Positions 45,559 through 62,385 of a stretch of DNA of 64,000 nt are shown in pieces. Origin of the DNA: an uncultured bacterium (GTDB taxonomy: Bacteria; Muiribacteriota; Ozemobacteria; Ozemobacterales; Ozemobacteraceae). The position numbers were made by a program, and so were the translations under genes. The DNA lies in assembly GCA_964472075.1 (NCBI GenBank), contig CAYYIY010000002.1, positions 23,771 to 87,770 on the forward strand, written 5' to 3'. Under the pieces are notes generated by a model, which made no database searches, was not told the origin of the DNA, and saw nothing but the letters and a program-made list of their open reading frames with translations. Each line of letters starts with the position of its first letter. The first letter of the stretch is position 1.

Positions 45559-45820
45559 AATTATACTGACGGTACCCCCCTTCCGTCCATGAAACGGGGC
45601 GGATATCTTTGTATCCTGGTGAAGTCAGACGATGAGTTTCCTGTTGTTGAGCCATGCAGGAATTTCTTTCTGACGTGTCGACCAAAACGCTTGTGCGCCG
45701 AGCGGCAGACAGAGAGGCCGTAAAAGGGAACAAACGAGAACGGGAGTGCCGACCAAACGGGAGCGGTGTGGAAATCGCCGTAAAAGGCAGGGTGCGGCGG
45801 CGACTCGAGGTCGAGCGGTT

Positions 45821-46446
45821 CTAGAGCAGCAGCGTTTCGACTTTTCCGGCCAGGCCTTTGCAGAAGGCGTCGGCATCGTTTTTGGTGCCGACGACCGAGC
45901 CGAAGTGCATCGGAATCGCCAGCTTCGGGCGCATGGCGAGAGCGGCCTGCACGGCTTCATCGGCGGTCATCACGTAGGTTCCCGACACCGGCAGCAGCGC
46001 GATATCGGTGCGCAGGGTTTTCATCTCTGGAATAAAATCCGTGTCGCCGGCGTGGTAGAGGCGAATCCCGTCGAGATTGAGAATGTACCCGACCCACGCG
46101 TTCAGTCGCGGATGAAATTTCTTGCCCACATTGTATGAAGGTACGGCCTCGATCTCGATTCCGTGAACCTGCATCTTCATGCCGGGTTTTACCGATCGTA
46201 CATTGCCGCTCAGCTTTCCAAGGCAGTCTTCAGGCGCGACGATAACGGTGCTTTCCTGCTGAATCCTGGCGATATCCTCGGGGGAACAGTGATCGAAATG
46301 CTCATGCGTGATCAGAATGATATCAGCCGGCTTGCCGTCGGTGATTTGATACGGATCGATGTAAATGGTTTTTTCGGCGTCGATTCGAAAACTGTCGTGA
46401 CCAAGCCAGGTGAGGTGTTTGCGGGCAAATTCCTTGAGGTCGGGCA
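45821..46446 (-). CDS. MBL-fold metallo-hydrolase
   Basis: Motifs ILITHEHFDHC (HxHxDH) and HAGDT are present. The start was trimmed to the ATG preceded by GGAGG (MPDLKEF...). Confidence 0.75.
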
Positions 46447-46562
46447 TGAGTCCTCCGGGGAAAAATCGTGTGATACGGCGGCTATTGTAACACCCTTTTG
46501 TCCGAAGGAAAACGTTTACGGGAGTGGCGAACTGATGCGTGTTTGCGATATCCTGACCCATC

Positions 46563-49500
46563 ATGAGTGATGAGCGCCTGCCCTTGATCGAAGCCACCCC
46601 CTCCGCTGACGAACCTGCGGCGGCTTCTCAAACTTGTACAAACGACACAGGTTCTTCCGAGCCTTCAACAGCAGTCGAACCGCCGACGTCAGCTCAGACA
46701 ACATCTCACGTCCCTGCTTCCGCTCTGCCGACGGTCGAACCAGAGCCGGGTTCCGTGCCGGAAGACGCTCGAAAACCGGTTGAGGCCGCTGCCACCAAGG
46801 CTCCACTCGAAATCGAACTGGATCTTGATACGCGCCTAAGCTGGGCGATGGAATGCAACGGGGTTCCGCTGATTCGCCGCCTGACGGTGCGGCATTGCGG
46901 TTCGGACCCGTTCACATCACTCCACGTCGAAATCACCCTGGGAGATCTGGCACGACCATTGTCGCTGAAGATCAGCCGGCTGGAGCCGGGAAACACCTGG
47001 ACGGTCGAAGCGCCGAACCTGATCCTCGCCGGAGGGCGTCTACGCTCTCTCAGCGAACGGGAACGCGCGCATCTGACGGTGCGTTGCCTTGACGGAGAGC
47101 GTGAGTTGACCCAGGTCGAGCACCCGATCGACGTTTTGGCCGGCAACGAATGGGACCGCACGCGATTACCCGAACTTCTCGCGGCGTTCGTCACGCCGAA
47201 CCACCCTTTCATTTCATCGCTCTTGCAGCAGGCGCGTCGAATTCTCGAACGTGAGACCGGTGATGCCGGTTTTCGCGGGTATGCGGGTCGATCGAGAGAG
47301 CCTGTCTATGCGGCGGCGCAGGCTGTCTACGAAGGGCTGGCCGAACTCGATCTGACCTACGTTCCGGCTCCGGTCTCGTTTGAAACGAGCGGGCAAAAGA
47401 TTCGTCTGGTCGACGATCTCGAGCGCCACCGGCTCGGCAACTGTCTCGACGTTTCCCTGGCGGTCGCTGCCGCGCTCGAACTGGCTGGATTGCACCCTGT
47501 TCTGGTGCTGTTACGCGGTCACGTGGTGCCGGGAGTCTGGCTGATCAACGAATGGCTGCCGATCACCGTCAGCGACGATCGCCTGATTGCCGAAAAACTG
47601 GTCAAATGCGGCGATCTGCTGCTGTTCGAGGCGACGGCCGCCCTGCAGAGACCGCTCCCGTCCTTCGAGTCGGCTGTACAGCATGCCGAAGAACTGTTGC
47701 GTTCAGGCGAAGCGTTCGAACTGCTGCTCGACATTCGGGCGGCCCGTCTGGCACGCCTGTTGCCCCTGCCGCTGCGTCGCTCTGATGAAACGGTTTCCAA
47801 TCGCCCGGATGAGAGCGGCACACCGACGCTCGATCACGGAACCTCGCGTTTTGAGAAGACGGCCGATCAATCAGACCCGGCTTTCCGCGTCGCGACCCCG
47901 GCTGCACCTCGCATCGAGTCCTGGAAGGAACGGTTGCTCGACCTTTCCCTGCGCAATCGTCTGCTGCATTATCGTCCGAGTCGTGAAAAGACAATCCCGC
48001 TGTCGGTACAGGATCTCCCGACCCTGGAAGATCGTCTGGCGGACGGCAGATCGTTGACGCTCGAACCATTACCCGAACTGTCCGCCGCTGAACCGCGCGC
48101 GGCGGATCTGGTTGAAGATCGAGGCGGCGATCGACAGTTTGAGACAGAGTGTCGTCGGCTTCTGGAGCATGATCGGTTGCTATGCAGCCTGGACGAATCA
48201 GAACTGCAGCGGCGCTGCCGCGCCATTTTTCGTCAGGCCCGCACCGAGCTGGAAGAGACCGGCAGCAGTACGTTGTTTCTGGCTCTCGGCTTTCTGCGCT
48301 GGTACGAGTCCGAGCAGTCGACCATGCCGCGTCTTGCCCCGATTCTGCTCTACCCTGTCGAAATGATCCGGCCCGTGCTGCGCGGGCGTTATGTCGTGCG
48401 TCTGCGCGATGACGATCCGCGACTGAACGACACGCTGATTGAAAAACTGCGGCGTGAGTTCCAGCTCGACTTTTCGCCGCTGAAGACGCTGCCGCTCGAC
48501 GAATCTGGGATTGATCTGGCGGTGGTATTGAGCCTGCTGCGACAGGTGACGGCGCGCCTGCCCCGTTTCGACGTTCTCGATCAGGCGGTGCTCGGGTTCT
48601 TTTCCTTCACCAAGTTTCTGATGTGGCGCGATCTGACCTCAAACCTCGACGATCTGATGCGCAACGAACTGGTTCGCCACATGGTCGAGGGAAAGGCGAA
48701 CGCGGTGTTCGCCGGGCAGACGTTCACGGATGAAGCACATCTCGATGCCGACTACTCACCCGACCAGCCCCCGATCATCCTCGATGCCGACGGCAGCCAG
48801 CTGACGGCTATCGACGCGGCCTTGCGCGGCCACACGTTTGTGCTGCAGGGCCCGCCGGGTACGGGCAAGTCCCAGACGATCGCGAACATCATCGCGGCAA
48901 GCATGGCGGCAGGGCGACGGGTACTGTTCGTCGCCGAGAAACGCGCGGCACTCGAAGTCGTGGCGAAACGCCTGCGAGCCGTCGGGCTGGGCGATGCCTG
49001 CCTCGAGCTGCATAGCAACCGCGCCAACAAGCGCGAAGTGGCGCTCGAGTTATTCCGCGTTTACCAGATGAGGCCGGAAGCCGCCGTCCCGGATTCGACA
49101 GCTCTGATTCGTGAGCTTTCCACCGATCGCGAGACCCTGAATGCTCATGCGGCTCTCATGAACGGCGCGACGCCGCTGGGACCGACGCACCATGAACTGC
49201 TGGGGCGACTTGTACGAACGACCATCGACGGCGAACCCGGCCTGCTCGGAGTGTCAGCGGATCGCCCCGGAACGATGATTTCACAGGCACTCGATGTCGA
49301 TGCCGGTCTCTGGCGTACCTGGAAGCAGTTGATACGCGAAGCAGCTGACGCGGCTTTCCCGTTTTTCCCTCCGAGTTCGCATGCCCTGCATGCCTGTCGT
49401 GTCACGGAATGGACTCCCGCGCTCGAACAGGAGCGCGAGGCTGAGATGCGAGCATTTCAATCTGCCGCAGAGCTTCTGCGACAGTGCGTCATAAAAGTAC

Positions 49501-52500
49501 AAACAGCGCTGGGGTGTCGTTTCGAGGTGCAGGTGAAACATCTGCGGGTGCTCGACCGTCTGTTGCAGATTCTGGAAACCCCCGTTCGTGACGGGGTGTC
49601 CGGCCTGCTGCAACGTAACGATGTCGAGCAGGTTCTCGAACGTCTCGATCGATTGCTGGCCTGGTCGGTCGAGCGCGAAACACTGTGGAAGAGCCTCGAG
49701 TCTACGTTCCTGCCGACGTTGCTTGACTGCGATCTGCTACGATTGCAACGTGAGATGTTATCGTATCGTGACTCATTCGTCCTCTGGCGCTGGTGGAACC
49801 TGCGCAGCTGCTGGTCCGAACTGGCGGCGGTCTCGCGCGCGCCGTTGCCCGATCTGCCGCAGGTTCTGGCGTGTCTGGCTTCGGCACTGCGTATTCAGGA
49901 GCTGGATCGCAACATGGGCGGCGAAGAAGAGCTGCTGGTCGCCTTGCTCGGCCCGTCTCTGCATCGGCGACTTCCCGATCACACCGAGATCGCGACTCTG
50001 GTTTGTACGGTTCGCGACTGGCGATCGGCTGCCGAACAACTGCCGCTCGACCATCTGGTGATACTGTCTGAGACGACGAGTGCCGCCGAGCGTTGGGCGC
50101 TGCGTCCTGGTGAGTCCGGAACCCTTGCTGCAATATCTGCTCAACAGGCTGGTGAACTACGTCGCGAACTCGGACAAGCGATTCACAGGTTCGGCGAGAG
50201 TTGGGCCGTTGCCGCCGTTGGATGGCGAATTCGAGCCGTCGAGGCGTTTCAGGCGGAAGGCGATGAGCTGGTTCCGGAGCGCATGCTGGCCCAGAGTCGG
50301 GCCTGGCTCGATCAGACACGGAATCTGAGAGACTGGAGCCGGTGGGTGCGTGCGCTTGAAGCTCTCGAACAGCATGGTTTGCTCGGGGTGACCCAGCGGC
50401 TGGCCGCCGGCAGAGTACCGATCGATGTCTGGGAGACAACCTTTGACAACTGGCTGGCGCACGAGCGATACAATGCGCTTTGTGTTCGATATCGCTCTGT
50501 GGCCGAGTTTTCTGGGCGTCGCCATGACCGTGTCGTTGAGCGCTTTCGGGCGAACGATCGTGAACTGCTCGAGCGTCGTCGTCGTGAAATCCGTGCGGCC
50601 CTTGCCGCGCGGCGACCCTCTTTCGGTGCGACGGTCAGCGAGTTTTCCGAAGTCGGGATTCTGCAGAAGGAAGCGCGCCGCAAGCGCGGCCACCTGCCGG
50701 TGCGCCGCCTGCTGGAGCGGATTCCGCATCTGCTCGGTCGACTGAAACCATGTCTGCTGATGAGCCCTCTTTCGATTGCTCAGTATCTGCCGCCCGGAGG
50801 CGAACCGTTCGACCTGGTCATCTTCGATGAAGCCTCGCAGATTGCGGTTCACGACGCGGTCGGCGCCATTGCCCGCGGTCGTCAGGTCATCGTCGTCGGT
50901 GACAGCAGACAGCTGCCCCCGACCTCGTTTTTCCAGGCGGATACCGACACCGGCGTTGAGGATGCCGCCGACCTCGATGCCGAACAGCTGCTGGCCCGCG
51001 ACCTCGAAAGCATTCTCGAGGAAACCGCCGCCGCGCTCGTTCCCAGCCTGATGCTGCGTTGGCACTATCGCAGTCGCGATGAAAGGCTGATTGCCTTCAG
51101 CAATAACCGGTACTATGGGGGCAATCTGCAGACGTTTCCGGCAGCCGTGGGAATGGCGGAATCGGGGGTGCAGCTGGTACCTGTTGCCGGGGTGTTTCAG
51201 CGCGGTACGAGTCGGACAAACCCGGCAGAAGCCATGGCAACGGCACATGCCGTGGTGGAATTCCTGCGTGACGAATCGAAACGTCATCTCTCGCTTGGAG
51301 TGGTCACCTTCAATCAGCCGCAACAGATGCTGATCGAAGATCTCCTGGACGATGCGCGGGCCCGATACCCCGAGATCGAGCCGTATTTCAGCGAACGAGT
51401 GCCTGAGCCGGTGTTCGTTAAAAATCTTGAAAATGTGCAGGGTGATGAACGCGATGTGATGCTGTTTTCCGTGACGTATGGCCCGGACGAATCCGGGAAC
51501 GTGTCGATGAACTTCGGGCCGCTGAATCGAGCGGGAGGCGAAAGACGCCTGAATGTCGCCATCACGCGTGCTCGCCGCAACCTGCTGGTGTTTTCAAGTC
51601 TGAACCCCGAAACGATCGACCTGAATCGTACGGCTGCGGTGGGTGTTCATCATCTGCGGGACTTTCTACGATATGCCGCGGGGCGCGATATCGGCGTCGT
51701 GGTTCCGGTGAATCGGGCCGAAGAGGGCATTCATGGCGATCACCGTGAGAACTTCCTGGCGAGCACGATCGCGAGTTTCCTGCGTGCGCAAGGGTATCGT
51801 GTGAAAGAACGGGTCGGTTGTGCCCGCTACAGGCTTGATCTTGCCGTCTACGACCCGGACAATGGCAGAGTCCTGATGGGTATCGAGACCGACGGAACGG
51901 CTTATGGTGCCCCAGGCCCGGCGAGAGATCGTGAACGGCTGCGAGCCGAAGTGCTGCGGGATCTCGGGTGGCGACTGTGCCGCTGCTATCTGCTGGACTG
52001 GCTCATTCACCCCGAAATCGAACAGGAACGTCTGATCGCGCTTCTGGAAAAAGCGCGACGTGAACCCGCCGACCCACTGCCGCCCGGTATGAATGCCCAT
52101 TGGACACCGGAATCGCCGGAAGGTCCCGCGGAAGATGCGCCGGCGGACATCCCGGCATCCGGTCAGCCTGTCGTTGAGGCTTCGGTCACCGAATCCGGCG
52201 CTTCTGATGCCGTCGTCGAACCTGCGAAGACAGCGAACGGACTGCCGCCCTTTGTCTTTTTCAGCATCGATAAACTCGGCGAACCGGAGGCGTTCACGCG
52301 CAGAGACCAGACGGAACGGCTGAAACAACTGCTGGTGAAGCTTATCGATCTTGAAGGACCGGTTCATGTTGATCGGGTCGGCAAAGTGCTGACTCAGGCA
52401 TACGGTATGACCAGGGTTGGCTCTCGCGCTGCACAGCGGGTCGACGAACTTGTACAAATGCTCTGTGCCGACAACAGGGTGCGAATAGCGGAGGAGTTTC

Positions 52501-52832
52501 TCTGGCCGGCGACGCTTGATCCGCTGCAGGACTTGCCGCCGGCACGCGGGCCGGCCGTGGATGGCAGCGTGCGCCCCGCCGAACAGATCGCACCAGAGGA
52601 AATGGCCGCAGCGGCACTGCGATTGCTTGAGCAGGCTGTGAGTCTGCCGCGGGGCGAACTCATGCGCGGTACGGCATCGGCGATGGGGTATCGGCGACTG
52701 ACACCGAGAACTCAGCCGTTCTTTCAGGCGGGAATTCAACTGCTGCTTGATCGAGGCAGGGCCGAGATCAACGGCGAAGCCATTCGCCTGCCGAACCTCT
52801 CGCCCGGCACGGTGACACCAGGTTCACGGTAA
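46563..52832 (+). CDS. Giant (2089 aa) helicase-nuclease protein: DUF4011-like N-terminus with a transglutaminase-like motif, a Upf1/DNA2-family SF1B helicase, a PD-(D/E)xK (Vsr/DUF559-like) endonuclease-like domain and a DUF3320-like C-terminus
   Basis: Walker A is VLQGPPGTGKSQTIANII and Walker B is VIFDEASQ. Further helicase motifs are VVGDSRQLPPT, DERDVMLFSVTYG and LNVAITRARRNLLVFSS. A later segment, RYRLDLAVYD...GIETDGTAYG, is endonuclease-like. The N-terminal segment LGNCLDVS...RGHVVPGVW is a Cys-His transglutaminase-like pattern. Confidence 0.85.
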   Translation: MSDERLPLIEATPSADEPAAASQTCTNDTGSSEPSTAVEPPTSAQTTSHVPASALPTVEPEPGSVPEDARKPVEAAATKAPLEIELDLDTRLSWAMECNGVPLIRRLTVRHCGSDPFTSLHVEITLGDLARPLSLKISRLEPGNTWTVEAPNLILAGGRLRSLSERERAHLTVRCLDGERELTQVEHPIDVLAGNEWDRTRLPELLAAFVTPNHPFISSLLQQARRILERETGDAGFRGYAGRSREPVYAAAQAVYEGLAELDLTYVPAPVSFETSGQKIRLVDDLERHRLGNCLDVSLAVAAALELAGLHPVLVLLRGHVVPGVWLINEWLPITVSDDRLIAEKLVKCGDLLLFEATAALQRPLPSFESAVQHAEELLRSGEAFELLLDIRAARLARLLPLPLRRSDETVSNRPDESGTPTLDHGTSRFEKTADQSDPAFRVATPAAPRIESWKERLLDLSLRNRLLHYRPSREKTIPLSVQDLPTLEDRLADGRSLTLEPLPELSAAEPRAADLVEDRGGDRQFETECRRLLEHDRLLCSLDESELQRRCRAIFRQARTELEETGSSTLFLALGFLRWYESEQSTMPRLAPILLYPVEMIRPVLRGRYVVRLRDDDPRLNDTLIEKLRREFQLDFSPLKTLPLDESGIDLAVVLSLLRQVTARLPRFDVLDQAVLGFFSFTKFLMWRDLTSNLDDLMRNELVRHMVEGKANAVFAGQTFTDEAHLDADYSPDQPPIILDADGSQLTAIDAALRGHTFVLQGPPGTGKSQTIANIIAASMAAGRRVLFVAEKRAALEVVAKRLRAVGLGDACLELHSNRANKREVALELFRVYQMRPEAAVPDSTALIRELSTDRETLNAHAALMNGATPLGPTHHELLGRLVRTTIDGEPGLLGVSADRPGTMISQALDVDAGLWRTWKQLIREAADAAFPFFPPSSHALHACRVTEWTPALEQEREAEMRAFQSAAELLRQCVIKVQTALGCRFEVQVKHLRVLDRLLQILETPVRDGVSGLLQRNDVEQVLERLDRLLAWSVERETLWKSLESTFLPTLLDCDLLRLQREMLSYRDSFVLWRWWNLRSCWSELAAVSRAPLPDLPQVLACLASALRIQELDRNMGGEEELLVALLGPSLHRRLPDHTEIATLVCTVRDWRSAAEQLPLDHLVILSETTSAAERWALRPGESGTLAAISAQQAGELRRELGQAIHRFGESWAVAAVGWRIRAVEAFQAEGDELVPERMLAQSRAWLDQTRNLRDWSRWVRALEALEQHGLLGVTQRLAAGRVPIDVWETTFDNWLAHERYNALCVRYRSVAEFSGRRHDRVVERFRANDRELLERRRREIRAALAARRPSFGATVSEFSEVGILQKEARRKRGHLPVRRLLERIPHLLGRLKPCLLMSPLSIAQYLPPGGEPFDLVIFDEASQIAVHDAVGAIARGRQVIVVGDSRQLPPTSFFQADTDTGVEDAADLDAEQLLARDLESILEETAAALVPSLMLRWHYRSRDERLIAFSNNRYYGGNLQTFPAAVGMAESGVQLVPVAGVFQRGTSRTNPAEAMATAHAVVEFLRDESKRHLSLGVVTFNQPQQMLIEDLLDDARARYPEIEPYFSERVPEPVFVKNLENVQGDERDVMLFSVTYGPDESGNVSMNFGPLNRAGGERRLNVAITRARRNLLVFSSLNPETIDLNRTAAVGVHHLRDFLRYAAGRDIGVVVPVNRAEEGIHGDHRENFLASTIASFLRAQGYRVKERVGCARYRLDLAVYDPDNGRVLMGIETDGTAYGAPGPARDRERLRAEVLRDLGWRLCRCYLLDWLIHPEIEQERLIALLEKARREPADPLPPGMNAHWTPESPEGPAEDAPADIPASGQPVVEASVTESGASDAVVEPAKTANGLPPFVFFSIDKLGEPEAFTRRDQTERLKQLLVKLIDLEGPVHVDRVGKVLTQAYGMTRVGSRAAQRVDELVQMLCADNRVRIAEEFLWPATLDPLQDLPPARGPAVDGSVRPAEQIAPEEMAAAALRLLEQAVSLPRGELMRGTASAMGYRRLTPRTQPFFQAGIQLLLDRGRAEINGEAIRLPNLSPGTVTPGSR

Positions 52833-53059: not shown

Positions 53060-53103
53060 CGACTACCACTATGTACCGTATCACTTTTCAGCGGGAGAGA
53101 ATC

Positions 53104-54456
53104 ATGATGCGTTTCGTTCGTTGGAGCCTGGTGTTGTTTTTGTTTCTGCAGTCTGTCAGTTCGTTCGGCGCCGGATTCATGGTTCGCGAACATTCGCAGG
53201 CTTCTCTCGGTAGTGCGTTTGCCGGAGTTCATGCCGGCTCTCATGACCTTGCCGACATGTTTTTCAACCCTGCTGCATTGTACTATCAACCCGACCGGGC
53301 AGCGTTGGTCGGTATGGCCGGCATGATGCCGAAAGCGAAGTTCCGCCTTTCCTCAGCGACGACCTTCAACGGTACGGCCGTGACCGGAACCCCCGGCGGG
53401 GAAAACATCGGTGAGGATGCCGTGATTCCTTCGTTGTATCTGGCTCAACCTTCCTGCAAGGGCTGGCGACTCGGACTTTCGGTGAATGCTCCCTGGGGGC
53501 TTTCCACCAAGTGTGACCCGAATTGGGTGGGCCGCTATTATGCGATCGATTCGAAGTTGACGTCGCTGAACGTCATGCCGACCCTGGCGCGTCGACTCAG
53601 CCCTCGCTGGGTGGGCGGGTTCGGCCTGCAGATGCAGAAGCTTGATGCGAAGCTCACCAACGCGATCGATTACGGAACCATCGGCGCGGCTGTGCCGCCG
53701 GCGCAGGGAGGGCCGATTCCCGGTGCCGTGCCGACGACACAGGACGGTCTGGCTGAGTTGAAGGGTGACGACTGGGGATACGGGTTTGTGCTTGGTTTCA
53801 TGTATGAGGCCTCGCCGAAGACGCGCCTCGGGTTCTCGTATCGTTCGAAAGTTGATCAGAATCTGAAGGGAACGGCGACTTTCTACCCCGATGCCGCCGG
53901 GATCAAGAACGTACTTACGGCTGCCGGCGGCGCGTTCGCGACCACCGGGGCGCAGGCCGCCGTGACTACGCCCGAAGTCGTGGGGTTCGGCATGAAGCAC
54001 GAGATGACCGCCTCTCTGACCATGGTTCTCGACGCGGTCTGGAACCGCTGGAGCCGGTACAAGGGATTGACCGTGTATTTCGACAATCCGTCGCAGGCGT
54101 CGTCTCGTGTTCAGGAAGACTGGCACGATGTCTGGTTGACGTCGATCGGCTTCTTGTACAAACTCGCTCCAAAATGGACGCTGCGTGCCGGGTATGCGGT
54201 CGATCGTTCTCCGATTCCTGATGAGCACCGCGTCCCCCGCATTCCCGGCTCGGACGGACGCTTCGCTTCGATCGGCGCCCGCTACCAGGCGTCGCCGCGG
54301 TGTCATGTCGATGTCGGCTACATGCACATCAATTACGACAAAGCTCCGATCATGCTGAAAAGCACCGATCCGGACAGCCTGTTCCGTGGCAATCTGAGCG
54401 GCAGCTTTTCAAACAGCTTCAGGATTCTGGGCGCGCAGATCGCCTGGAACTGGTAG
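53104..54456 (+). CDS. Outer-membrane transport protein of the FadL/TodX (OmpP1) family
   Basis: The signal peptide is MMRFVRWSLVLFLFLQSVSSFGA. The N-terminus AGFMVREHSQASLGSAFAGVHA plus NPAAL is typical of FadL. A beta-barrel pattern follows. The track start was trimmed to 53104. Confidence 0.75.
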   Translation: MMRFVRWSLVLFLFLQSVSSFGAGFMVREHSQASLGSAFAGVHAGSHDLADMFFNPAALYYQPDRAALVGMAGMMPKAKFRLSSATTFNGTAVTGTPGGENIGEDAVIPSLYLAQPSCKGWRLGLSVNAPWGLSTKCDPNWVGRYYAIDSKLTSLNVMPTLARRLSPRWVGGFGLQMQKLDAKLTNAIDYGTIGAAVPPAQGGPIPGAVPTTQDGLAELKGDDWGYGFVLGFMYEASPKTRLGFSYRSKVDQNLKGTATFYPDAAGIKNVLTAAGGAFATTGAQAAVTTPEVVGFGMKHEMTASLTMVLDAVWNRWSRYKGLTVYFDNPSQASSRVQEDWHDVWLTSIGFLYKLAPKWTLRAGYAVDRSPIPDEHRVPRIPGSDGRFASIGARYQASPRCHVDVGYMHINYDKAPIMLKSTDPDSLFRGNLSGSFSNSFRILGAQIAWNW

Positions 54457-54466
54457 CACGAACCCC

Positions 54467-55366
54467 TCAGTTCTTCGTTTCCTCGTCGGCGAGAAAGCCC
54501 TCGTAGCCGCGCCGGGCTTTCATGTGCTGCATGGTTTCGAGACCGCCCGGATACTGGCCGATGTTGATGAACAGATCTTTCAGGCGGGCTCGGGTTTCCG
54601 CCGGAAGTTCGCGACTGGCGACGATCGGGTCGGTGGGAATCCATTGCACCCAGCTGAGGCATCGCGTCCCAGTCGGAATGCCGGATTCGTCGCCGGAATC
54701 GATGAAAATGGCGGCAGCATCGGCCGTGCCCGATAGCAGAGCGTCAAGGCTGCGGCTGTGATTGCCGCTGAACAGCACCTCTGAGAACGAGGCAACCGGA
54801 TCCATGCCATGCTCGCGTAACAAGCGAGCCGGGTACAGAAAACCGCTACCGGAAAATCGGTCGACGTATGCCATGCGATGACCGCCGAGATCCTCGACGG
54901 AATGATACGGACTATCACTACGCACGAGAATGGCGGAACGATAGTGGGCGCGCCCGCGTTGAATCGGGTGGCAGAGAATCTCCACCATATCTCGCCTCTT
55001 CCAGGTCTCGAGAAGCGCGGTGCCGAGCCAGGCAACCTGGACTTTTCCGGCTTCGATCAATTGAATGAGAGAGCGGTAGTCATCGGCAACCAGAATTCTG
55101 ACCTGAATACCGAGATGGCGGCTGAGAAAGGCCATCAGCAGAGAAAAATGTTCCGCCAGTTCCTCGTCGGTCTGATACGGCAGAATGCCGAAGTTGATCA
55201 GACGGTCGGCCGAGTGCTGCCAGGTGATCTTCATGTTTCCGTCGTTGGCATGCTCGAGGCCGATCAATTGCCGGAACAAGGGTGACGCCGACCAGGACTC
55301 CGGATGCAGGACGGCAAAAAACGCGAGAGGAATGACGAGAAGGAGAACGAGGAATAGCCATTTCAT
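54467..55366 (-). CDS. PhnD/SsuA-type periplasmic substrate-binding protein (phosphonate/phosphite-binding-like)
   Basis: A signal peptide is present. Motifs AVLPYQTDEEL-like, IQVRILVADDY and RMAYVDRFSGSGFLYP are typical of the PhnD family. No ABC permease or ATPase gene is adjacent. Confidence 0.65.
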   Translation of the reverse strand: MKWLFLVLLLVIPLAFFAVLHPESWSASPLFRQLIGLEHANDGNMKITWQHSADRLINFGILPYQTDEELAEHFSLLMAFLSRHLGIQVRILVADDYRSLIQLIEAGKVQVAWLGTALLETWKRRDMVEILCHPIQRGRAHYRSAILVRSDSPYHSVEDLGGHRMAYVDRFSGSGFLYPARLLREHGMDPVASFSEVLFSGNHSRSLDALLSGTADAAAIFIDSGDESGIPTGTRCLSWVQWIPTDPIVASRELPAETRARLKDLFINIGQYPGGLETMQHMKARRGYEGFLADEETKN

Positions 55367-58056
55367 GGAAGAGATTCCTTTTCCGGCAGAAGTTCATGGT
55401 CGGCCAGACGACGCGGATCAAGAAAACCGGCTTCGATGACCGCAGAGCGAAGTTTTTCCGGTGCGCGAGCGGCGAATAGAATGGCGCTGAGCATGGCGAA
55501 AGTCGTCTCGGGAAGGAAGGGATGCAGAAGTTCGAGCGCGAGAGCCGAGGTCTGCGGATCGTCTGGAATCAGCTTGCGAAAGGTCTCGGGAGAGCAGGCT
55601 TCTCGCGGGCACAACAGTGCCAACAGCGGCGTGAAGTTGCTCCAGCGAATATCCAGCGTCTTCTGCAGCTTCCGCACTTCTTCAGCTTGTACGGACGCGC
55701 GCTCACGAATCTCCAGCAAACGGGCGAAATCCCACATAAAGCCTGAAAGTTGCGAGTGCAACCACCCGCGTATCATCTGATTGTCGGGTGTTGTCAGAGC
55801 GAGAAGGAGCGGCAATGACTCAACCGGCTGAAGCAGGGTCTCCCGTCGCACCTGCTCGAGCAGCGGGGTGTCGTTCAAGACCAGGCTGCCGTCTGCCTGT
55901 TCGATCAGGCACGAGTCAAGAATCGTGTTCAGTGTCGGTGATGATTCAGACAATGATTCCAGAATGCCCGGCAGGCGATCGGCGGGCTGCAGTCGAAGAA
56001 GACGCTGCAACAGAGAGGGGGAGAGACGACTGCGCAGGGCGCGGAGCCAGATGCCCGTGCGGTGCCGTTCTTCCAGAGACATGCCTGCCAACGCTCTTTG
56101 CAGGCTGGTCTGCAGTTGTCCGGAAAGTTCGTTCCAGCAGGTGCGGGCGAAGGTGCCGCGCACCCCCGTTTGCGACAGGCGTTTGCTGACAAACTCGAGA
56201 ACCGGCTGCGTGCCGACCGACGCCAGCGCGTGATAGGCACAGCGGGCGACATCTTCGCTGGGGTCATCGACCAATCGGAAGAGCGCGTCGGCGAAAACCG
56301 GGAATCCGAGGCGCCCCATGACGACGGCGGCGGTCGAACGATCGCGGGCGGAATGACCTTCACGCAGACCCGCAAGGGCTTCAAGTGCCTGGGGAATCAG
56401 GCGACGGCCGACTCCGTGTCGAAGATAGGAGAGAACGGCGCTGCCGCGCACCCGATGGTGAGGGTGATCGAAGAACGATGAGAACATCCATTCAAAATCG
56501 GGGTGCATGGTCTGATCAGCCGCATCGAGAACGTCGGCGATGCGTCGTGGGTTTGTACAAGAACCCAGATAGGCAGACAACGGTTGCACTTGATCGGCCG
56601 AGCGCAGCATGAACCGGGTCATGCCGGCGACCAGTGTGGCATCGTTGACCTGCGGCAATCGTTCGCGAATCAACTCGTGCAACTCGGGAAGATTGAGAGG
56701 ACCGAGTCGCAGCAACGCCTTGAGTTGGACATCACGATCTGAATCCTGAAAGAGGCGTTGCAGCATTTGTCGTCGTGCCGTCGGCGGGAGCAGTTTGAAT
56801 CCGTCGAGGCTGGTGGTCGGCACGTCAGAACCGTCGGTGAGCGTTTCACGGATCATTTCTGGATACAGGTTGAGCAGCGATCGGTTGAAACGCAGAGTCA
56901 GCAGAGCGATGATCGAGATGACGAGAAAAACGACGGGCTGTGCTCCGCTGTTGTAACTGTTCCAGGCAGCGAGTGCCAGGCCGAGTGAGGTGAGCGTGAC
57001 GCAATCGATCAGGTTGAGCAGGCGTCGAACGTACGAGCGAATCTGCAATGGAAGAGGTTCAAGAAGCAGAACCCAGACTGGTGACATGAAAACAAAGGTG
57101 AGCGTGCGTGACAGATACTGAAACCCGGTGATGTTCCAGAAACTCGGCAGAAGCCAGGTGATCACGCCGAAAATTCCGAGAAGCACGGGCCTCAGCGCAA
57201 GAATCGACCCGAGAGAGAGATGCGTGAAAAACCAGCGTCCGGCAAAGGCCTGCAACATCAGGGTCGTTACCTCGATGACGGCATTCAGCGTTCCCAGCAG
57301 GGCGGCGATTCGAGCGGGTCGATCGGCGATCCCCGCATAGAGATCCGGCAGGCCGGCGTTGAACTGAAAATCGACGAGATTGACGACCAGACTGCCCATG
57401 ACCGAAATGACAAACACCATGGAAGAGTACCGGCGATGTACCGGAGAAATCGTGGCCCAGCTGGTGAGAGACGGTATGGTACTTGATGCAGAACTCGACG
57501 TCGGTTGTTCCGGTCGATAACGGGAAAGAATCAGCCACGAGGCGAACCCGACCAGCGGAACCAGCACCAGAAGCGGAAAAAAGCCGGTGGTCGGCAGCAG
57601 AAGACGCAGGCTGACGCCTGCCAGGATCGAGCCGAGAGTGCCGGCGGCCAGCAGCGTGGGCAGGTGCAGGCGAGATTCCTGCAAGGCCCAGGTCTTGCCG
57701 ACCAGATCATAAAACGATTGCGTTGCATGCAGATCCCAGCTGCGATACAGAATCAGGGCGGGAAAGGTGATCCAGCCGGTCGGGTGCGGGAAGAGAACGG
57801 CAAGCAGCAGGGTCAACAGGAACATTGGCGGAAGCGCTCGATGCAGAAACGGCTCTCCGTGCAGATGGGGGCGAGCGAGCAGATAACCCTGGGTGGTCAC
57901 GAAGAGAATCGAGAAACCCACGTAGTACCAGGGCCAGCCTCCTGATCCGAATGATTCAAGAAACAGAGAAGAAAACGCAAGAATCAGAAACGTGTTGAAC
58001 CCGCGCAGGCAGAAGAAAAAGCCCGCGAGGATCGGAAACGCCGAAAGGGAACTCAT
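55363..58056 (-). CDS. Polytopic membrane protein (about 12 TM, MFS/TLC-like) fused to C-terminal HEAT-like repeats
   Basis: The N-terminal ~430 aa are strongly hydrophobic. The C-terminal half has repeated 'D..VR..A..AL' motifs. A 4-nt overlap with the downstream substrate-binding protein gene is present. Confidence 0.55.
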   Translation of the reverse strand: MSSLSAFPILAGFFFCLRGFNTFLILAFSSLFLESFGSGGWPWYYVGFSILFVTTQGYLLARPHLHGEPFLHRALPPMFLLTLLLAVLFPHPTGWITFPALILYRSWDLHATQSFYDLVGKTWALQESRLHLPTLLAAGTLGSILAGVSLRLLLPTTGFFPLLVLVPLVGFASWLILSRYRPEQPTSSSASSTIPSLTSWATISPVHRRYSSMVFVISVMGSLVVNLVDFQFNAGLPDLYAGIADRPARIAALLGTLNAVIEVTTLMLQAFAGRWFFTHLSLGSILALRPVLLGIFGVITWLLPSFWNITGFQYLSRTLTFVFMSPVWVLLLEPLPLQIRSYVRRLLNLIDCVTLTSLGLALAAWNSYNSGAQPVVFLVISIIALLTLRFNRSLLNLYPEMIRETLTDGSDVPTTSLDGFKLLPPTARRQMLQRLFQDSDRDVQLKALLRLGPLNLPELHELIRERLPQVNDATLVAGMTRFMLRSADQVQPLSAYLGSCTNPRRIADVLDAADQTMHPDFEWMFSSFFDHPHHRVRGSAVLSYLRHGVGRRLIPQALEALAGLREGHSARDRSTAAVVMGRLGFPVFADALFRLVDDPSEDVARCAYHALASVGTQPVLEFVSKRLSQTGVRGTFARTCWNELSGQLQTSLQRALAGMSLEERHRTGIWLRALRSRLSPSLLQRLLRLQPADRLPGILESLSESSPTLNTILDSCLIEQADGSLVLNDTPLLEQVRRETLLQPVESLPLLLALTTPDNQMIRGWLHSQLSGFMWDFARLLEIRERASVQAEEVRKLQKTLDIRWSNFTPLLALLCPREACSPETFRKLIPDDPQTSALALELLHPFLPETTFAMLSAILFAARAPEKLRSAVIEAGFLDPRRLADHELLPEKESLP

Positions 58057-59186
58057 TGGTCCGGACGTTCGCGCTGGCGCCAGAGGTCTTCGATCAGTCG
58101 ATTGCGTTCAAGCCGATCGGCCATGGCGTTGAACGCTCGCCCGGCGTCGCCGAGTTCATCGTCACCGACTTCGGAAATGCGCCAGGAAAGCACCCCGTCG
58201 CCGACCTTGCGAATGCCCTCGATCAGTTTCGGAATCTGCGTGATGAAACGATCGGCCATGACCAGACTGATGGCCATCGCGACGACCACGGCGGCCAGCA
58301 CCATCAGCAGCAGTTGTTGTGAAAGCTCGTTCACGCGGCCGAGAACGGCTTCTCGCGTGCGTCCGACGATGAGCGCGGCCTGCAGGTCGGGGAACGAACG
58401 GGCGAACACGAGAAAGGAACGACCTTTCAAGGTGGTCCAGGTCGACTGCGGGGTCGCCTCATCAGGCCATGGATCGAGCAGAATGCCGCTCAGCGTGCTT
58501 GGCATGCCGGACCCGGCTCTGGCGATGATCTCGCCTTTCCGATCGATGAGAGCGAGAAACCCGTCGGGCGGCGCATAGCGGGTGAGAGTGTGCTGCAGAA
58601 TGGCGCCGTTGAGATGAATACCCAGACTGAGTACGCGTACGACCTGATCGGGTTGATCGAGAGCGCGCACCGGGAACTTCATGACCACCAATGGCCCCTG
58701 GCGAACAGACGAGACCGCGTCGCTGATGACCGGTTGATTGGTGTCGACCACCGTCTTGAAAGCATCAATCAGCTTCTGATACGCGGCCCCTGCTTTCATC
58801 AGGTTTTTCCCGATAAGCCGGTCAGCCACCGGTGAATGGTTACGGTAAACGGCGGTCAGTACGGTTCCATTGCGATCATAAAGAATCGCGCTGAAGAAAA
58901 GGGGATTCTGTTCGAGAAACTCGGACAATCGGGGTTTGCAGCGTGCGGCATCGGGGTTCAGCAGTGACGGGTGCTCGGCGACATACTGAAGATGCAGGCG
59001 AATCTCTTCGAACTTCATCGCCAGCCCTTGTTTGAGCGCGTTGCTGAGGTGTCGTTGTGCGGTCATCGCGTCTTCTGTCAGATTCGTATGAATACGATAC
59101 AGGATGAACCCGCCGATGAACACGGCCGCGAGCAGGACCACGCCGACGATCAGGATCAGCAGTTGGAAACGAATCTGACGAAACAT
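58053..59186 (-). CDS. Membrane sensor protein with a periplasmic domain and HAMP, and no output domain
   Basis: The order is TM helix, extracytoplasmic domain of ~270 aa, TM helix, then a HAMP-like segment (ISEVGDDELGDAGRAFNAMADRL). The protein ends after HAMP. A 4-nt overlap with the downstream gene is present. Confidence 0.6.
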   Translation of the reverse strand: MFRQIRFQLLILIVGVVLLAAVFIGGFILYRIHTNLTEDAMTAQRHLSNALKQGLAMKFEEIRLHLQYVAEHPSLLNPDAARCKPRLSEFLEQNPLFFSAILYDRNGTVLTAVYRNHSPVADRLIGKNLMKAGAAYQKLIDAFKTVVDTNQPVISDAVSSVRQGPLVVMKFPVRALDQPDQVVRVLSLGIHLNGAILQHTLTRYAPPDGFLALIDRKGEIIARAGSGMPSTLSGILLDPWPDEATPQSTWTTLKGRSFLVFARSFPDLQAALIVGRTREAVLGRVNELSQQLLLMVLAAVVVAMAISLVMADRFITQIPKLIEGIRKVGDGVLSWRISEVGDDELGDAGRAFNAMADRLERNRLIEDLWRQRERPDQ

Positions 59187-59257: not shown

Positions 59258-60067
59258 TCAGTGCTTGCGCAGATGTTCGATCTCATCGTCGGTGAGAAGA
59301 GAAACGCCGCTGCTCGGTCGTCGGGGCGGTGCGGTATCGGTGTCTGGGAGCGACGAAGCGCCCTCGGCCTGACGTCGCCGTTCCTTCTGCCAGAACCGGG
59401 TGAGCGGAGTCGAAGCCGGAACGAGGACGGAACGGTAAAGTTGAAGCGCCTTTTCAGGGCCGAGCGCGTAACGGAAGACCCAGAACTCAAACGGAAAGAA
59501 AGAGATGGCGCCCAGGTCCGGGTATGGTTTGAATGATTCCGAGTTGCTCATCACCTTGATCTGAAGATCTTCGACCTGAGACCGCTGCAGTGAAGAACCG
59601 GGCAGCAACGGGAACACGCGATCGCACTCGGGCGGTGCCCCCTCGATGTTTTGGCCGAACAGGCGACAGCAGAAGGGCCGTGATTGGTGAATCAGGCACG
59701 AGCGCGACTCGGACGATCGAAACGCGCAACGCAGACGATATTCGCCGCTGACCTTCGTCAGGCGGCGCTCGAGATGCAGAACCTCATGCATGATCTGTCT
59801 GATCCGGCGTGGGGGCATGCCGGCCAGCATATCGCGAACGATCAGGTGATACTCGAGCGAATAAATCGACACTGAATTGCAGCAAGAACCGCAGTTGTCG
59901 CATCTGGTTTCGGGAATCTGCTGGTACAAGGTTCTCAGCAGGTTCATACCGTACATGCCGTGATCGGCAGAAGCCTGCAGTACCCTATTTAACAGGGCCT
60001 CTTCCTTCTGCTCGATCTCGCGAGCTGTCAGCTCTTTCAGAAACGACAGCGGATTCTCGTGTGACAT
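59258..60067 (-). CDS. YkgJ/UPF0153-type cysteine-cluster protein (second copy)
   Basis: Motifs CDNCGSCC and FCCRLFG are present. The same family signature occurs in 35237..35716. Confidence 0.55.
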   Translation of the reverse strand: MSHENPLSFLKELTAREIEQKEEALLNRVLQASADHGMYGMNLLRTLYQQIPETRCDNCGSCCNSVSIYSLEYHLIVRDMLAGMPPRRIRQIMHEVLHLERRLTKVSGEYRLRCAFRSSESRSCLIHQSRPFCCRLFGQNIEGAPPECDRVFPLLPGSSLQRSQVEDLQIKVMSNSESFKPYPDLGAISFFPFEFWVFRYALGPEKALQLYRSVLVPASTPLTRFWQKERRRQAEGASSLPDTDTAPPRRPSSGVSLLTDDEIEHLRKH

Positions 60068-60175
60068 GGGTCAACAAACCAAAGAAACGACAAACCCCTC
60101 AAACGCCCGGTTCACGGGCGCTTGAGGGTCGATGGGGACAGCGTCGGAGTTCAGCCGACAGGCCGAACGGCCGAA

Positions 60176-60469
60176 TTACATGTCCTGTGAGCGCTCGCGG
60201 CGGGGGCCGTTGGGGCCGGTGCCCTGTGACTTGGCAATACTGACGGTCAGGGGGCGGCCATCCATATTCTGCCCGTTCATTCCCGCAACGGCGGCGTCAG
60301 CCGCAGCCTGGTCGGCGAATTCAACGAAGCCGTAGCCGCGAGAGCGGTTGGTGTGCTTGTCGGTGACGACGCGAGCGGACTCGACGGCACCAAACTTCGA
60401 GAATTCCTCTTTCAGGCGGTTGTCATCGGTAGCAAACGGGAGATTGCCAACAAACAGTTTCACGGACAT
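60176..60469 (-). CDS. RRM-type RNA-binding protein
   Basis: RNP2 is KLFVGNL and RNP1 is RGYGFVEF. The start was trimmed to the ATG preceded by GGAGGAA. Confidence 0.8.
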   Translation of the reverse strand: MSVKLFVGNLPFATDDNRLKEEFSKFGAVESARVVTDKHTNRSRGYGFVEFADQAAADAAVAGMNGQNMDGRPLTVSIAKSQGTGPNGPRRERSQDM

Positions 60470-60613
60470 GGACAGGTTCCTCCAGGAAATAATACTTACG
60501 GCTCGTTTCAACACGAACCATCGTGAAGAGCAGAAGCGAGCCGAAACTATTTTCCCGCACCTCGTACGGATTTGCAAGTCTTTTCTTCTCTCTCCTGTTG
60601 AGAGGGAAAACTT

Positions 60614-60673: not shown

Positions 60674-61795
60674 ATGAAACCCCGCATGCAGAAAGAGTTG
60701 CGCATGATCCCGACCGTTCAGTATCAACCAGAGACCGATACGGTGTCTTTGCTCGATCAAACCCGACTTCCCTGCGAACGGGTGATGATGACGTGCCGTA
60801 CAGTCGACGAGATGTGCGAGGCCATACGTTCTCTGCGGGTTCGCGGCGCGCCGGCCATCGGGGTCGCCGCAGCGTTCGGGTTGTACATCGGCTTGCGCGA
60901 ATACACGGGCGGCGCGGAAAACGTATCGGCCTGTGTCGACGAAGTTGCCGCACGACTCGCGCAGACGCGTCCGACGGCGGTCAATCTGTTCTGGGCGCTG
61001 AACCGCGCGACCAGAGCGATTCATCAGGCTATTGCCGCCGCGGCTCCGGCCGCCCGCCTGGAAGCCGCCCGCGCTGAGGCTCTGCATCAGGCGCAGGTGA
61101 TCATGCGCGAGGATATCGAGATGTGTCGGGCGATCGGTTTCTACGGTGCCGCGTATCTGCTCGACGGCGACACCTGGCTGACCCATTGCAACGCCGGCGC
61201 CCTCGCCACCGGCGGGTACGGAACCGCGCTCGGGGTATTCCGTGCCGCGAAAGAGCAGGGAAAACGCTTTTCGGTATTTGTCGACGAAACCCGGCCGTTG
61301 CTGCAGGGGGCCCGCCTCACCGCCTGGGAACTCAGGGAAGAAGGCATCGATGCCGTGCTGATCTGCGACAACATGGCCGCGTCTCTGATGGGTGCCGGGA
61401 AAATTCACGGGATTGTCGTCGGCGCTGATCGCATTACGGCCGAAGGCTGGGTGGCCAACAAGATCGGTACGTACGGCCTGGCGGTTCTCGCGCATTATCA
61501 CCGAGTGCCGTTCTATGTTGCCGCGCCCGTTTCCACTTTTGATCTCGGTATTCGCCACGGGCGCGAAATCGCCATCGAACAGCGGGCGGCCGATGAAGTG
61601 ACGCACTGGGGCGGAGTACAAACCGCTCCGCACGGAATGCCCGTCTACAACCCGGCTTTCGATGTGACCCCCCCGGAGCTGATTACGGCGATCTTCACGA
61701 ATCTCGGCGTTCTGAAAGCCCCGTATGAGATCTCAATTCGTGAAACGCTGCAGGGTGCCGGTCTTGATCATCTGCACGGAGTCGGCAAGGCATGA
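60674..61795 (+). CDS. mtnA: S-methyl-5-thioribose-1-phosphate isomerase (eIF-2B alpha/beta/delta family)
   Basis: Family-typical motifs are RGAPAIGVAAAFG and RPTAVNLFWAL. The start may instead be the ATG at 60704. Confidence 0.75.
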   Translation: MKPRMQKELRMIPTVQYQPETDTVSLLDQTRLPCERVMMTCRTVDEMCEAIRSLRVRGAPAIGVAAAFGLYIGLREYTGGAENVSACVDEVAARLAQTRPTAVNLFWALNRATRAIHQAIAAAAPAARLEAARAEALHQAQVIMREDIEMCRAIGFYGAAYLLDGDTWLTHCNAGALATGGYGTALGVFRAAKEQGKRFSVFVDETRPLLQGARLTAWELREEGIDAVLICDNMAASLMGAGKIHGIVVGADRITAEGWVANKIGTYGLAVLAHYHRVPFYVAAPVSTFDLGIRHGREIAIEQRAADEVTHWGGVQTAPHGMPVYNPAFDVTPPELITAIFTNLGVLKAPYEISIRETLQGAGLDHLHGVGKA

Positions 61796-62385
61796 ACATA
61801 CTGCGCGACTTTCAACAGGTCGGTGCCGATCTGTTCGCGGCTCGTCTCAACAACACCCATTCCGGCAATCTCAGCGTGCGCTTGAATCGCATGCTGGCCA
61901 TCACCCGTACCGGTTCCATGCTGCACCGACTCGGACACAACGACATCGTGGAGACGCTCATTGACGGCGACGACCTCGAGACGCCGCGCGCCTCGCGTGA
62001 AATTCCAGTGCATCGGGCCGTCTATCGCCACATCGACACGCAGGCGGTGGTGCACGCGCACCCGCCTCATGTGATTGCACTCTCGCTTCTCGTTGATCGA
62101 ATCATGCCTCTCGATGGTGAGGGCCGGTACTATTTCCCCCACGGCGTGCCGATTCTGACCGTCGACAACCCCGTCGGTTCGGAAGAAGTCGCTCGCGGGT
62201 TGCCGCCGCTGCTCAAAACGTCGCCGATCGTCGTCGTGCGCGGCCATGGCACCTTCGCCATCGGCAACGATCTTGAATCGGGCCTGCACTGGACGAGCAG
62301 TCTGGACAATATCGCCCAGATCATCCTGCTCAGTCGCCTCGGCATGCAGATCGCTCCGGCCGGTCGCGCCTGTTCACCTTCATGA
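61792..62385 (+). CDS. mtnB: Class II aldolase/adducin-family protein, probably methylthioribulose-1-phosphate dehydratase
   Basis: Motifs HSGNLS and HAHPPHVIALS are present. An ATGA overlap with mtnA is present. The function is inferred from family plus context. Confidence 0.65.
   Translation: MNILRDFQQVGADLFAARLNNTHSGNLSVRLNRMLAITRTGSMLHRLGHNDIVETLIDGDDLETPRASREIPVHRAVYRHIDTQAVVHAHPPHVIALSLLVDRIMPLDGEGRYYFPHGVPILTVDNPVGSEEVARGLPPLLKTSPIVVVRGHGTFAIGNDLESGLHWTSSLDNIAQIILLSRLGMQIAPAGRACSPS

Follow-up and report, generated by a model that had tools for sequence, protein, structure and literature searches.

In this work, we have analyzed a stretch of 64,000 nucleotides (the window) from an uncultured bacterium of the family Ozemobacteraceae (contig CAYYIY010000002.1 of assembly GCA_964472075.1), in which three consecutive genes form a compact unit. 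They encode a dCache-HAMP membrane protein devoid of an output domain (gene 1), an MFS-type membrane protein prolonged by HEAT repeats (gene 2), and a PhnD-type substrate-binding protein (SBP) (gene 3). The unit looks like an undescribed way for an external signal to control a transporter. Its parts are all of known kinds, i.e., an NTT-HEAT fusion, a dCache-HAMP sensor stub, and a PF12974 binding protein, and the ideas of SBP co-sensors and of transporter-sensor pairs are already known as well; what is new is the partnership, in which an output-less HAMP protein is found invariably with an NTT-HEAT transporter, together with a PhnD-type SBP and with no kinase or ABC system. The reading that we favor, to which we give a probability of roughly 0.4, is that of sensor-gated transport: the SBP and the dCache domain would sense a phosph(on)ate-like ligand and the HAMP domain would act on the HEAT tail, gating the transporter. 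The evidence is wholly genomic and the hosts belong to uncultured candidate phyla.

The three minus-strand open reading frames (ORFs), as well as the two 4-nucleotide (nt) ATGA junctions between them, had been described in an initial annotation made from the nucleotide sequence, and both were confirmed at the coordinates collected in Table 1. To this arrangement we can add its conservation. Related loci were taken from the contigs of the relatives of gene 1 and gene 2, yielding ten full loci, including that of the window, and one contig-end fragment (L005), where the contig breaks off after the second gene; a profile search of the GTDB representative genomes, run with a narrower alignment, returned three loci, two of them already in the set. 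The dCache-HAMP gene lies directly upstream of the MFS-HEAT gene in all ten full loci, and the junction between both genes is always tight, varying between an overlap of 31 nt and a gap of 4 nt. The complete order dCache-HAMP, MFS-HEAT, Phosphonate-bd is present in 8 of the 10 loci (the window, L001, L002, L004, L007, L009, L013, and L011, the latter being a Wallbacteria locus). The binding-protein gene is found 3.3 kb downstream of the adjacent genes 1 and 2 in L014, and L012 contains genes 1 and 2 with no binding protein. Genes 2 and 3 are translationally coupled in the window, L002, L004, L009, and L011, and in the remaining three loci with adjacent genes 2 and 3 the distance between them is 2-108 nt. 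The flanking genes differ among the loci, save for L001, which is syntenic with the window, and no kinase, cyclase, response regulator, transcription factor, or ABC importer recurs next to the units of the ten loci.

The three proteins also diverge in a correlated manner, since the pairwise identity matrices across the loci gave r values of 0.94 for HAMP/MFS-HEAT, 0.88 for MFS-HEAT/SBP, and 0.87 for HAMP/SBP (Mantel p ~2e-4). Two of the units, L002 and L014, come from one metagenome-assembled genome (GCA_964428355.1) and share just 19-35% identity, and, for each of the three proteins, L014 clusters with L011 and L012, so that the units have been duplicated and have diverged as blocks. Several strongly diverged paralogous units were found per Riflebacteria genome, i.e., L002/L014, P0023/P0048, and P0014/P0021/P0056 (HQM08_ locus tags), and this multiplicity recalls the way in which sensory or uptake modules of differing specificity expand. 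All the members with informative taxon names are Riflebacteria or Wallbacteria, and one more bears just the name 'bacterium CG2_30_54_10'.

Gene 1 carries a pair of hydrophobic segments, at aa 10-28 and aa 292-310, a match to dCache_1 at aa 68-274 (32.3 bits, under the Pfam cutoff of 45 bits), and a match to HAMP at aa 320-360 (34.2 bits, over the Pfam cutoff). When a profile of 11 orthologs was compared with the PDB, the dCache sensor domain of KinD (E 4e-4) and the HAMP domain of Tsr (E 3e-6) were recovered, the HAMP domain of HtrII being one of the weak matches, and the HAMP residues G331, D343, E344, and N353 are invariant across these 11 sequences. The initial annotation had read this gene as a periplasmic sensor plus HAMP with no output, and we agree: neither Pfam nor NCBIfam revealed an output module (MCPsignal, HisKA, GGDEF, etc.) after the HAMP domain, the protein stops ~17 residues past it, and the NCBIfam kinase and chemoreceptor profiles match only the stretch formed by the second transmembrane (TM) segment and HAMP, far under their cutoffs. 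The 11 orthologs have 369-418 aa, and all of them terminate, past HAMP helix 2, in one common short tail of consensus L-E/Q-R/K-N-R-L-I-x-x-I/L-W, whose Trp369 is invariant. The equal architecture and the conserved tail indicate that the truncation of gene 1 is ancestral and functional and not an assembly artefact. The tail is the sole candidate output element of the protein. In the periplasmic domain, the residues that are invariant among the orthologs are exclusively Gly and Pro, a pattern compatible with ligand pockets that have diversified as well as with a role in protein docking. PADLOC yielded just a 23-bit ZorA-like match on the TM2-HAMP stretch of gene 1, which was rejected as evidence of a defence role, and none on genes 2 and 3.

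Gene 2 has a single Pfam match, to HEAT_2 (aa 561-628, 37.4 bits, cutoff 27.7). A word-based search provided three close relatives of gene 2 and six of gene 1, and one of those close relatives of gene 2, from Candidatus Ozemobacteraceae (Riflebacteria), is annotated by NCBI as 'MFS transporter'. An exhaustive HMMER search for relatives of gene 2 over 1.84 billion representatives produced 446 matches at E<=1e-3, of which 37 were at E<=1e-30, and ~60 full-length clusters of ~900 aa align to gene 2 from the N-terminus nearly to the C-terminus. Among 52 relatives scanned, HEAT_2 was detected in all, MFS_1 in 22, TLC (PF03219), the family of the ATP/ADP transporters, in 6, and cNMP_binding in 7. 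A profile built with the 32 closest relatives (E<=1e-31) matched in the PDB AtNTT1, the ATP/ADP translocator of Arabidopsis (E 3.6e-7), and NTT1 of Chlamydia (E 1.4e-3); a wider profile reached E ~1e-13. A search for homologues with the 32-sequence profile was swamped by the HEAT repeats and returned mainly distant TLC-HEAT proteins.

The AlphaFold model of gene 2 generated with the 32-sequence alignment (mean predicted local distance difference test, pLDDT, of 84; predicted template-modelling score, pTM, of 0.69) comprises 12 TM helices, arranged 6+6 and with aa 179-204 as the central loop, and then a helical solenoid at ~aa 417-890; together with the HEAT_2 match, this bears out the ~12-TM domain fused to HEAT-like repeats proposed at the outset. 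An earlier model calculated from a 3-sequence alignment was unusable (pLDDT 50, ~35 in the TM domain) and it was superseded by this one. The top PDB matches of Foldseek to the model were the AtNTT1 structures 9j3m and 9j3l, with a TM-score of 0.65 on the target, followed by SPNS2, Chlamydia NTT1, and other MFS transporters, the HEAT part being matched by alphaRep proteins. A profile restricted to the TM domain and built from the units of this study aligned by hhalign with two TLC-annotated proteins at 98.6% (E 7e-16, 319 columns) and 97.5% (E 6e-12, 382 columns), and a TM-only hidden Markov model (HMM) matched TLC-HEAT and 'Npt1/Npt2 family' proteins with E values from 1e-10 to 1e-31. Thus, the homology to NTT proteins is not carried by the HEAT repeats alone. 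A TM-only profile of 8 sequences found no match in the PDB at E<=1. According to the profiles and the predicted fold, the TM domain of gene 2 appears to be a divergent member of the NTT/TLC branch of the MFS, as the initial annotation had proposed to check, and the profile, fold, and TM-only evidence taken together indicates that gene 2 is a divergent member, or a sister, of the NTT-HEAT fusion family. The initial annotation read the anatomy of the unit correctly and missed that its middle protein belongs to a family already described.

The NTT-HEAT fusions have been described as widespread, monophyletic, and functionally uncharacterised proteins, frequently with a domain that binds cyclic nucleotides (cNBD) after them or fused to them, an association that is frequent but not obligatory (Major, Embley & Williams 2017, Genome Biol Evol; PMC5381601). 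In agreement with this, several of the longer and more distant relatives of gene 2 carry cNMP-binding domains, and the distant TLC-HEAT relatives P0158 and P0160 have small stand-alone cNMP-binding genes within ~2 kb, without HAMP or SBP genes; these contexts fit the published association. In one of these two loci, the cNMP gene lies immediately downstream with overlapping coordinates; in the other, it is placed ~2.2 kb away, past an opposite-strand gene, and response-regulator, SpoIIE, and EAL genes are found nearby. Gene 2 itself, the genes around it in the window, and the ten related loci are all devoid of a cNMP_binding domain. The C-terminal region of gene 2 appears to be particular to its clade, since an HMM of aa 660-897 matched most of the closest relatives of ~900 aa at E<=1e-20 and gave no or marginal matches in most of the relatives larger than 1000 aa, with P0085 and P0088 as exceptions.

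Within the TM helices, the clade of 32 sequences conserves the polar residues Q56, D108, D229 (always acidic), D/E262, Q269, and Q313. These intramembrane acidic and amide residues suggest a working cavity and not a mere anchor, and their mostly acidic/amide character does not obviously suit an anionic nucleotide as the substrate. This observation bears on the possibility that the unit is a non-transporting signalling complex, where the MFS-HEAT protein would serve as transceptor or scaffold, in the way that UhpC does for UhpB, and the HEAT tail would recruit a cytoplasmic effector upon input from the SBP and the dCache-HAMP protein. HEAT repeats are indeed scaffolds for interactions between proteins, no enzymatic output is present in the HAMP protein, and the presence of several paralogous units per genome is typical of sensory modules; moreover, transporters acting as co-sensors are well established, such as UhpC, which is of the MFS type, DctA/DcuB, and LysP. 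However, the conserved TM residues point to a functional substrate cavity, and a kinase, cyclase, or transcription factor gene that could provide the effector does not recur beside the units in the ten loci, so that we regard this explanation as quite unlikely.

Gene 3 scored 179 bits with Phosphonate-bd (PF12974) and 139 bits with TIGR01098, the phosphate/phosphite/phosphonate ABC substrate-binding subfamily, over the cutoff of 112; with the PhnD equivalog TIGR03431 it scored 134.7 bits, under the cutoff of 261.1. The closest PDB matches were PtxB, which binds phosphite (E 3e-18, 69 bits), the arsenite sensor protein AioX (E 1.4e-16, 64 bits), PhnD of E. coli, which binds 2-aminoethylphosphonate (E 5e-16, 62 bits), and ArrX (E 9e-11). 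There is in addition a weak similarity to the TAXI-TRAP binding proteins (E 1.9e-4, 20 bits, cutoff 84). The relevant blocks align without gaps with Ps_PtxB (5o2j), allowing the site residues named in PMC5700983 to be mapped: Y49 of Ps_PtxB corresponds to Y97 of gene 3 (invariant in the orthologs), Y94 to Y142 (Y, H, or F), S124-T125-S126 to S172-G173-S174 (S-G-[ST] in most orthologs), H155 to H203 (invariant), and the capping Y203 to D246 (invariant). In PhnD of E. coli, the residue D205 located at the cap position opens the pocket and binds the amine of the ligand (PMC5700983). The maintenance of the oxyanion-site residues, together with a cap Asp as in E. coli PhnD, suggests that the ligand of gene 3 is probably a substituted tetrahedral oxyanion, i.e., phosphonate- or phosphate-ester-like, and not bare phosphite. 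The protein has a hydrophobic segment at aa 3-21, where no obvious signal-peptidase site was seen by inspection, and the Wallbacteria ortholog displays, in an alignment inspected by eye, a lipobox-like LAAGC motif; both features make it likely that gene 3 is membrane-tethered.

A PhnD-type protein might simply be an orphan that serves an ABC transporter encoded elsewhere, being a chance neighbour of two unrelated membrane-protein genes. The score over the TIGR01098 cutoff agrees with this possibility, and the portion of this genome that was inspected is the 64-kb window. Nevertheless, the three-gene order recurs amid unrelated flanks even where the middle protein retains just 19-25% identity, the divergence of the three proteins is correlated, the genes are joined by ATGA overlaps, and gene 3 falls under the PhnD equivalog cutoff. 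Moreover, phnC/phnE-like neighbours were found in 0 of the 10 loci, the sole ABC genes, those of L013, being of the ABC-2 type and lying on the opposite strand, and the window contains no ORF having both a Walker A motif and the LSGGQ signature of the ABC ATPases. The orphan explanation is, in our opinion, very improbable, and the prediction that this is not a standard ABC importer was sustained, adjacent phnCE genes being absent within the 64-kb window.

According to the sensor-gated transport that we favor, the membrane-tethered gene 3 protein would capture a small phosph(on)ate-bearing ligand and, once loaded, it would dock on the dCache domain of gene 1, in the manner of ChvE/VirA, CBP/ChiS, and AioX/AioS. 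The HAMP domain and the conserved Trp-containing tail would then act on the HEAT/C-terminal region of gene 2, switching its transport on or off. The dCache-HAMP protein and the SBP would in this way take the role proposed for the cNBD in the sister NTT-HEAT proteins, with an input that is periplasmic instead of cytoplasmic. The predicted topology places the HEAT/C-terminal region in the cytoplasm, the side on which the HAMP domain and its tail are located too. The periplasmic loops of the MFS domain are very short in the AlphaFold model of gene 2, which weakly favors the docking of the SBP on the dCache domain over the MFS domain. The known SBP-sensor pairs include dCache-like sensors, i.e., VirA/ChvE and ChiS/CBP (PMC8050422). 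We favor this model on account of the topology, the invariable HAMP and MFS-HEAT pair, the dispensable SBP, and these known SBP-sensor pairs. More generally, it is tentatively conceived that the unit constitutes a self-contained envelope module, where an extracellular signal controls a secondary transporter directly without any kinase. The ligand-sensing or tethered-SBP signalling assembly that was initially suggested is plausible, with AioX and ArrX as a direct precedent, and the conserved unit and the correlated divergence support it as well.

The same genes could also be explained by a binding-protein-dependent MFS importer, in which the PF12974 protein hands its ligand to the NTT-like MFS protein and the dCache-HAMP protein is an accessory regulator or assembly factor. 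DctP delivers the ligand to TRAP transporters and TctC to TTT transporters in a comparable way, and we know of no SBP-dependent MFS transporter that has been characterised. The ATGA coupling of genes 2 and 3 in the window, repeated as coupling in L002, L004, L009, and L011, the complete oxyanion-binding site of gene 3, its weak similarity to the TAXI-TRAP binding proteins, the lack of an ABC partner in the 64-kb window, and the conserved residues of the MFS cavity all agree with such an importer. However, the SBP is dispensable, being absent in L012 and 3.3 kb away in L014, while the HAMP gene is always directly upstream; furthermore, the short periplasmic loops of the MFS domain do not favor a direct delivery, and the constant presence of an output-less HAMP protein is left unexplained. 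For these reasons, we consider the importer unlikely.

Several points weigh against sensor-gated transport too. The anatomy of the genes, their homologies, their conserved order, and their correlated divergence constitute an association at the gene level, and such correlated divergence is equally expected from the plain co-inheritance of neighbouring genes. The direction of the information flow is an assumption, and the interaction, the ligand, and the transport are putative. Gene 2 by itself gives no Pfam match to TLC or MFS_1 at E<=0.1. Finally, to our knowledge, there is no characterised precedent for a HAMP domain that acts directly on a transporter.

The NTT-HEAT proteins are widespread, being known from cyanobacteria, Chlamydia trachomatis, and oomycete pathogens as well as from many free-living bacteria, and the clade studied here differs in its sensor partner. 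This leads to the general proposal that the HEAT tail receives the regulatory input that controls the transporter. If this were true, the tails of the NTT-HEAT proteins of Chlamydia, cyanobacteria, and oomycetes would dock interchangeable modules, i.e., the cNBD for cytoplasmic signals and the dCache-HAMP protein plus the SBP for periplasmic ones, and the known roles of HAMP domains and PhnD-type binding proteins would be extended. It is somewhat doubtful that the unit represents the first HAMP domain with a transporter as output and a kinase-free MFS that is sensor-gated or binding-protein-dependent, with the HEAT tail as a docking platform in all NTT-HEAT proteins. Our literature search found no described system formed by a HAMP protein, an MFS-HEAT protein, and a binding protein, and no functional study of NTT-HEAT proteins later than their description in 2017.

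Table 1. Features of the three-gene unit and of its upstream neighbours in the window.
Feature	Coordinates	Strand	Length, basis or remarks
Gene 1, dCache-HAMP membrane sensor without output domain	58053..59186	-	377 aa; ORF, Pfam, hydrophobic segments
Periplasmic dCache-like domain of gene 1 (~aa 30-290)	58317..59099	-	dCache_1 match, KinD profile match
HAMP domain of gene 1 (~aa 311-362)	58101..58256	-	Pfam HAMP, invariant residues
Post-HAMP tail of gene 1 (ERNRLIEDLW..., with Trp369)	58056..58100	-	15-17 residues; alignments of 9 and 11 orthologs
Gene 1/gene 2 stop/start overlap	58053..58056	-	ATGA, 4 nt; sequence read directly
Gene 2, NTT/TLC-like MFS domain, HEAT repeats and clade-specific C-terminal region	55363..58056	-	897 aa
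12-TM (6+6) MFS domain of gene 2, NTT/TLC-like (aa 1-410)	56827..58056	-	AlphaFold2, Foldseek, profiles
HEAT-repeat solenoid of gene 2, predicted cytoplasmic (aa 417-659)	56080..56808	-	HEAT_2; alphaRep and PBS-HEAT PDB matches
C-terminal helical region of gene 2 (aa 660-897)	55366..56079	-	Region-specific HMM
Gene 2/gene 3 stop/start overlap	55363..55366	-	ATGA, 4 nt; sequence read directly
Gene 3, exported PF12974 binding protein of the PhnD/PtxB/AioX type, its N-terminus being a hydrophobic anchor or signal peptide	54467..55366	-	299 aa
Binding-protein fold of gene 3 (aa 56-287)	54506..55201	-	Gap-free alignment to Ps_PtxB 5o2j
CxxCxxCC (PF03692) gene	59258..60067	-	71 nt upstream of gene 1; Pfam
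Strong terminator-like hairpin, 3' of the RRM gene and just upstream of the CxxCxxCC gene	60096..60128	-	14-bp stem
Small RRM_1 RNA-binding protein gene	60176..60577	-	Pfam, 87 bits
IF-2B (mtnA-like) and class II aldolase (mtnB-like) pair, divergent from the unit	60674..62385	+	Pfam

Concerning the surroundings of the unit, a convergent gene encoding a FadL/TodX-type outer-membrane protein (53071..54456) ends 10 nt from the stop of gene 3. On the other side, the CxxCxxCC gene may be co-transcribed with the three-gene unit in the window; as a fourth member of the unit it was rejected, because it was not found upstream of the unit in the other loci. The hairpin beyond it is likely the upstream limit of the transcription unit. 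Scans of the window for tRNAs, Rfam families, and notable tandem repeats found none.

Other genes were noticed in the neighbourhoods of the units. In L011 (9590..14781) and L014 (12867..14693), which represent a second subfamily of units, the binding-protein gene is followed by genes for giant proteins of at least ~960 aa with a PNP_UDP_1 (nucleoside phosphorylase) domain, overlapping the binding-protein gene by 4 nt in L011; together with the mtnA/mtnB-like pair of the window, these genes make a link to nucleoside or nucleotide metabolism possible. The place of the binding-protein gene is occupied in L012 (8856..12422) by an 1188-aa MFS_1-acyltransferase-AMP-binding fusion, LplT-Aas-like, and this fusion and the FadL-type neighbour in the window give hints of lipid or lysophospholipid substrates, which may be a coincidence. 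Immediately upstream of the unit of L013 (525..4740), there are genes for a soluble protein of 880 aa that consists of HEAT repeats over nearly its whole length (HEAT_2, 202 bits, 7 stretches) and for a 520-aa APH-type kinase, which could be extra partners of the HEAT tail in that lineage.

Farther away in the window, a plus-strand gene (46563..52832) encodes a protein of 2089 aa whose domains are DUF4011, an AAA_11/AAA_12 helicase, a restriction-endonuclease-like MTES_1575, and DUF3320. In PADLOC, it matches near end-to-end the candidate defence model PDC-S37 (1230 bits), and Hhe is matched too (562 bits). This gene is syntenic with the three-gene unit in L001 and not in the other loci. About 1 kb from it, a minus-strand gene (43252..45558) encodes a protein of 768 aa that contains two PLD-like domains and gives weak DrmC/MkoB-like matches in PADLOC, and a gene of the metallo-beta-lactamase fold (45821..46597) lies between both. 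The 43252..52832 stretch may be a defence island.

When the unit is compared with known systems, several partial likenesses can be recognized. UhpC-UhpB, DctA/DcuB-DcuS, and LysP-CadC are transporter/sensor pairs based on co-sensing, and in SRII-HtrII a HAMP transducer is associated with a multi-TM partner. As in all these systems, a polytopic protein of the membrane is joined here in one unit with a signalling protein that is separate from it and also lies in the membrane; unlike them, whose final element is a kinase, a DNA-binding domain, or a module for kinase control, the unit has no such output, and thus the transporter-like gene 2 is presumed to be the target and not the input. The genetic coupling of a periplasmic binding protein to a secondary, i.e., non-ABC, transporter is shared with the TRAP and TTT systems, whereas the membrane part is here of the MFS/NTT type instead of DctQM/TctAB and the SBP is of PF12974 instead of DctP/TAXI/TctC.

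With the PhnCDE and PtxABC importers, the unit shares a binding protein of the PhnD/PtxB fold family that retains the Tyr...Tyr...S-x-S...His oxyanion site, with an Asp at the cap position like that of E. coli PhnD; it differs from them in that no ATPase or permease gene is found in the window or beside the related units. The PF12974 proteins AioX and ArrX do not feed ABC transporters; each provides a sensor kinase of the membrane with its ligand-binding subunit (PMC5908839, PMC8050422). As in AioX-AioS-AioR and ArrX-ArrS-ArrR, gene 3 is encoded beside a membrane sensor and not beside an ABC transporter, and its likeness to AioX (64 bits) is no higher than that to the transport proteins PtxB (69) and PhnD (62). 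In contrast with AioS and ArrS, which are histidine kinases with a response regulator, gene 1 ends after HAMP and contains neither HisKA nor HATPase_c, the unit has no response-regulator gene, and its third component is transporter-like. Lastly, gene 2 agrees with the NTT-HEAT family in its architecture, an NTT/TLC-like 12-TM MFS domain at the N-terminus and then HEAT repeats (PF13646/PF02985), with homology collinear across both, and in having a small regulatory sensor module encoded right beside the fusion gene. It departs from that family in being too diverged for the Pfam TLC model, in having no fused or adjacent cNBD, and in its clade-specific C-terminal region, with a dCache-HAMP gene upstream and, usually, a PF12974 gene downstream.

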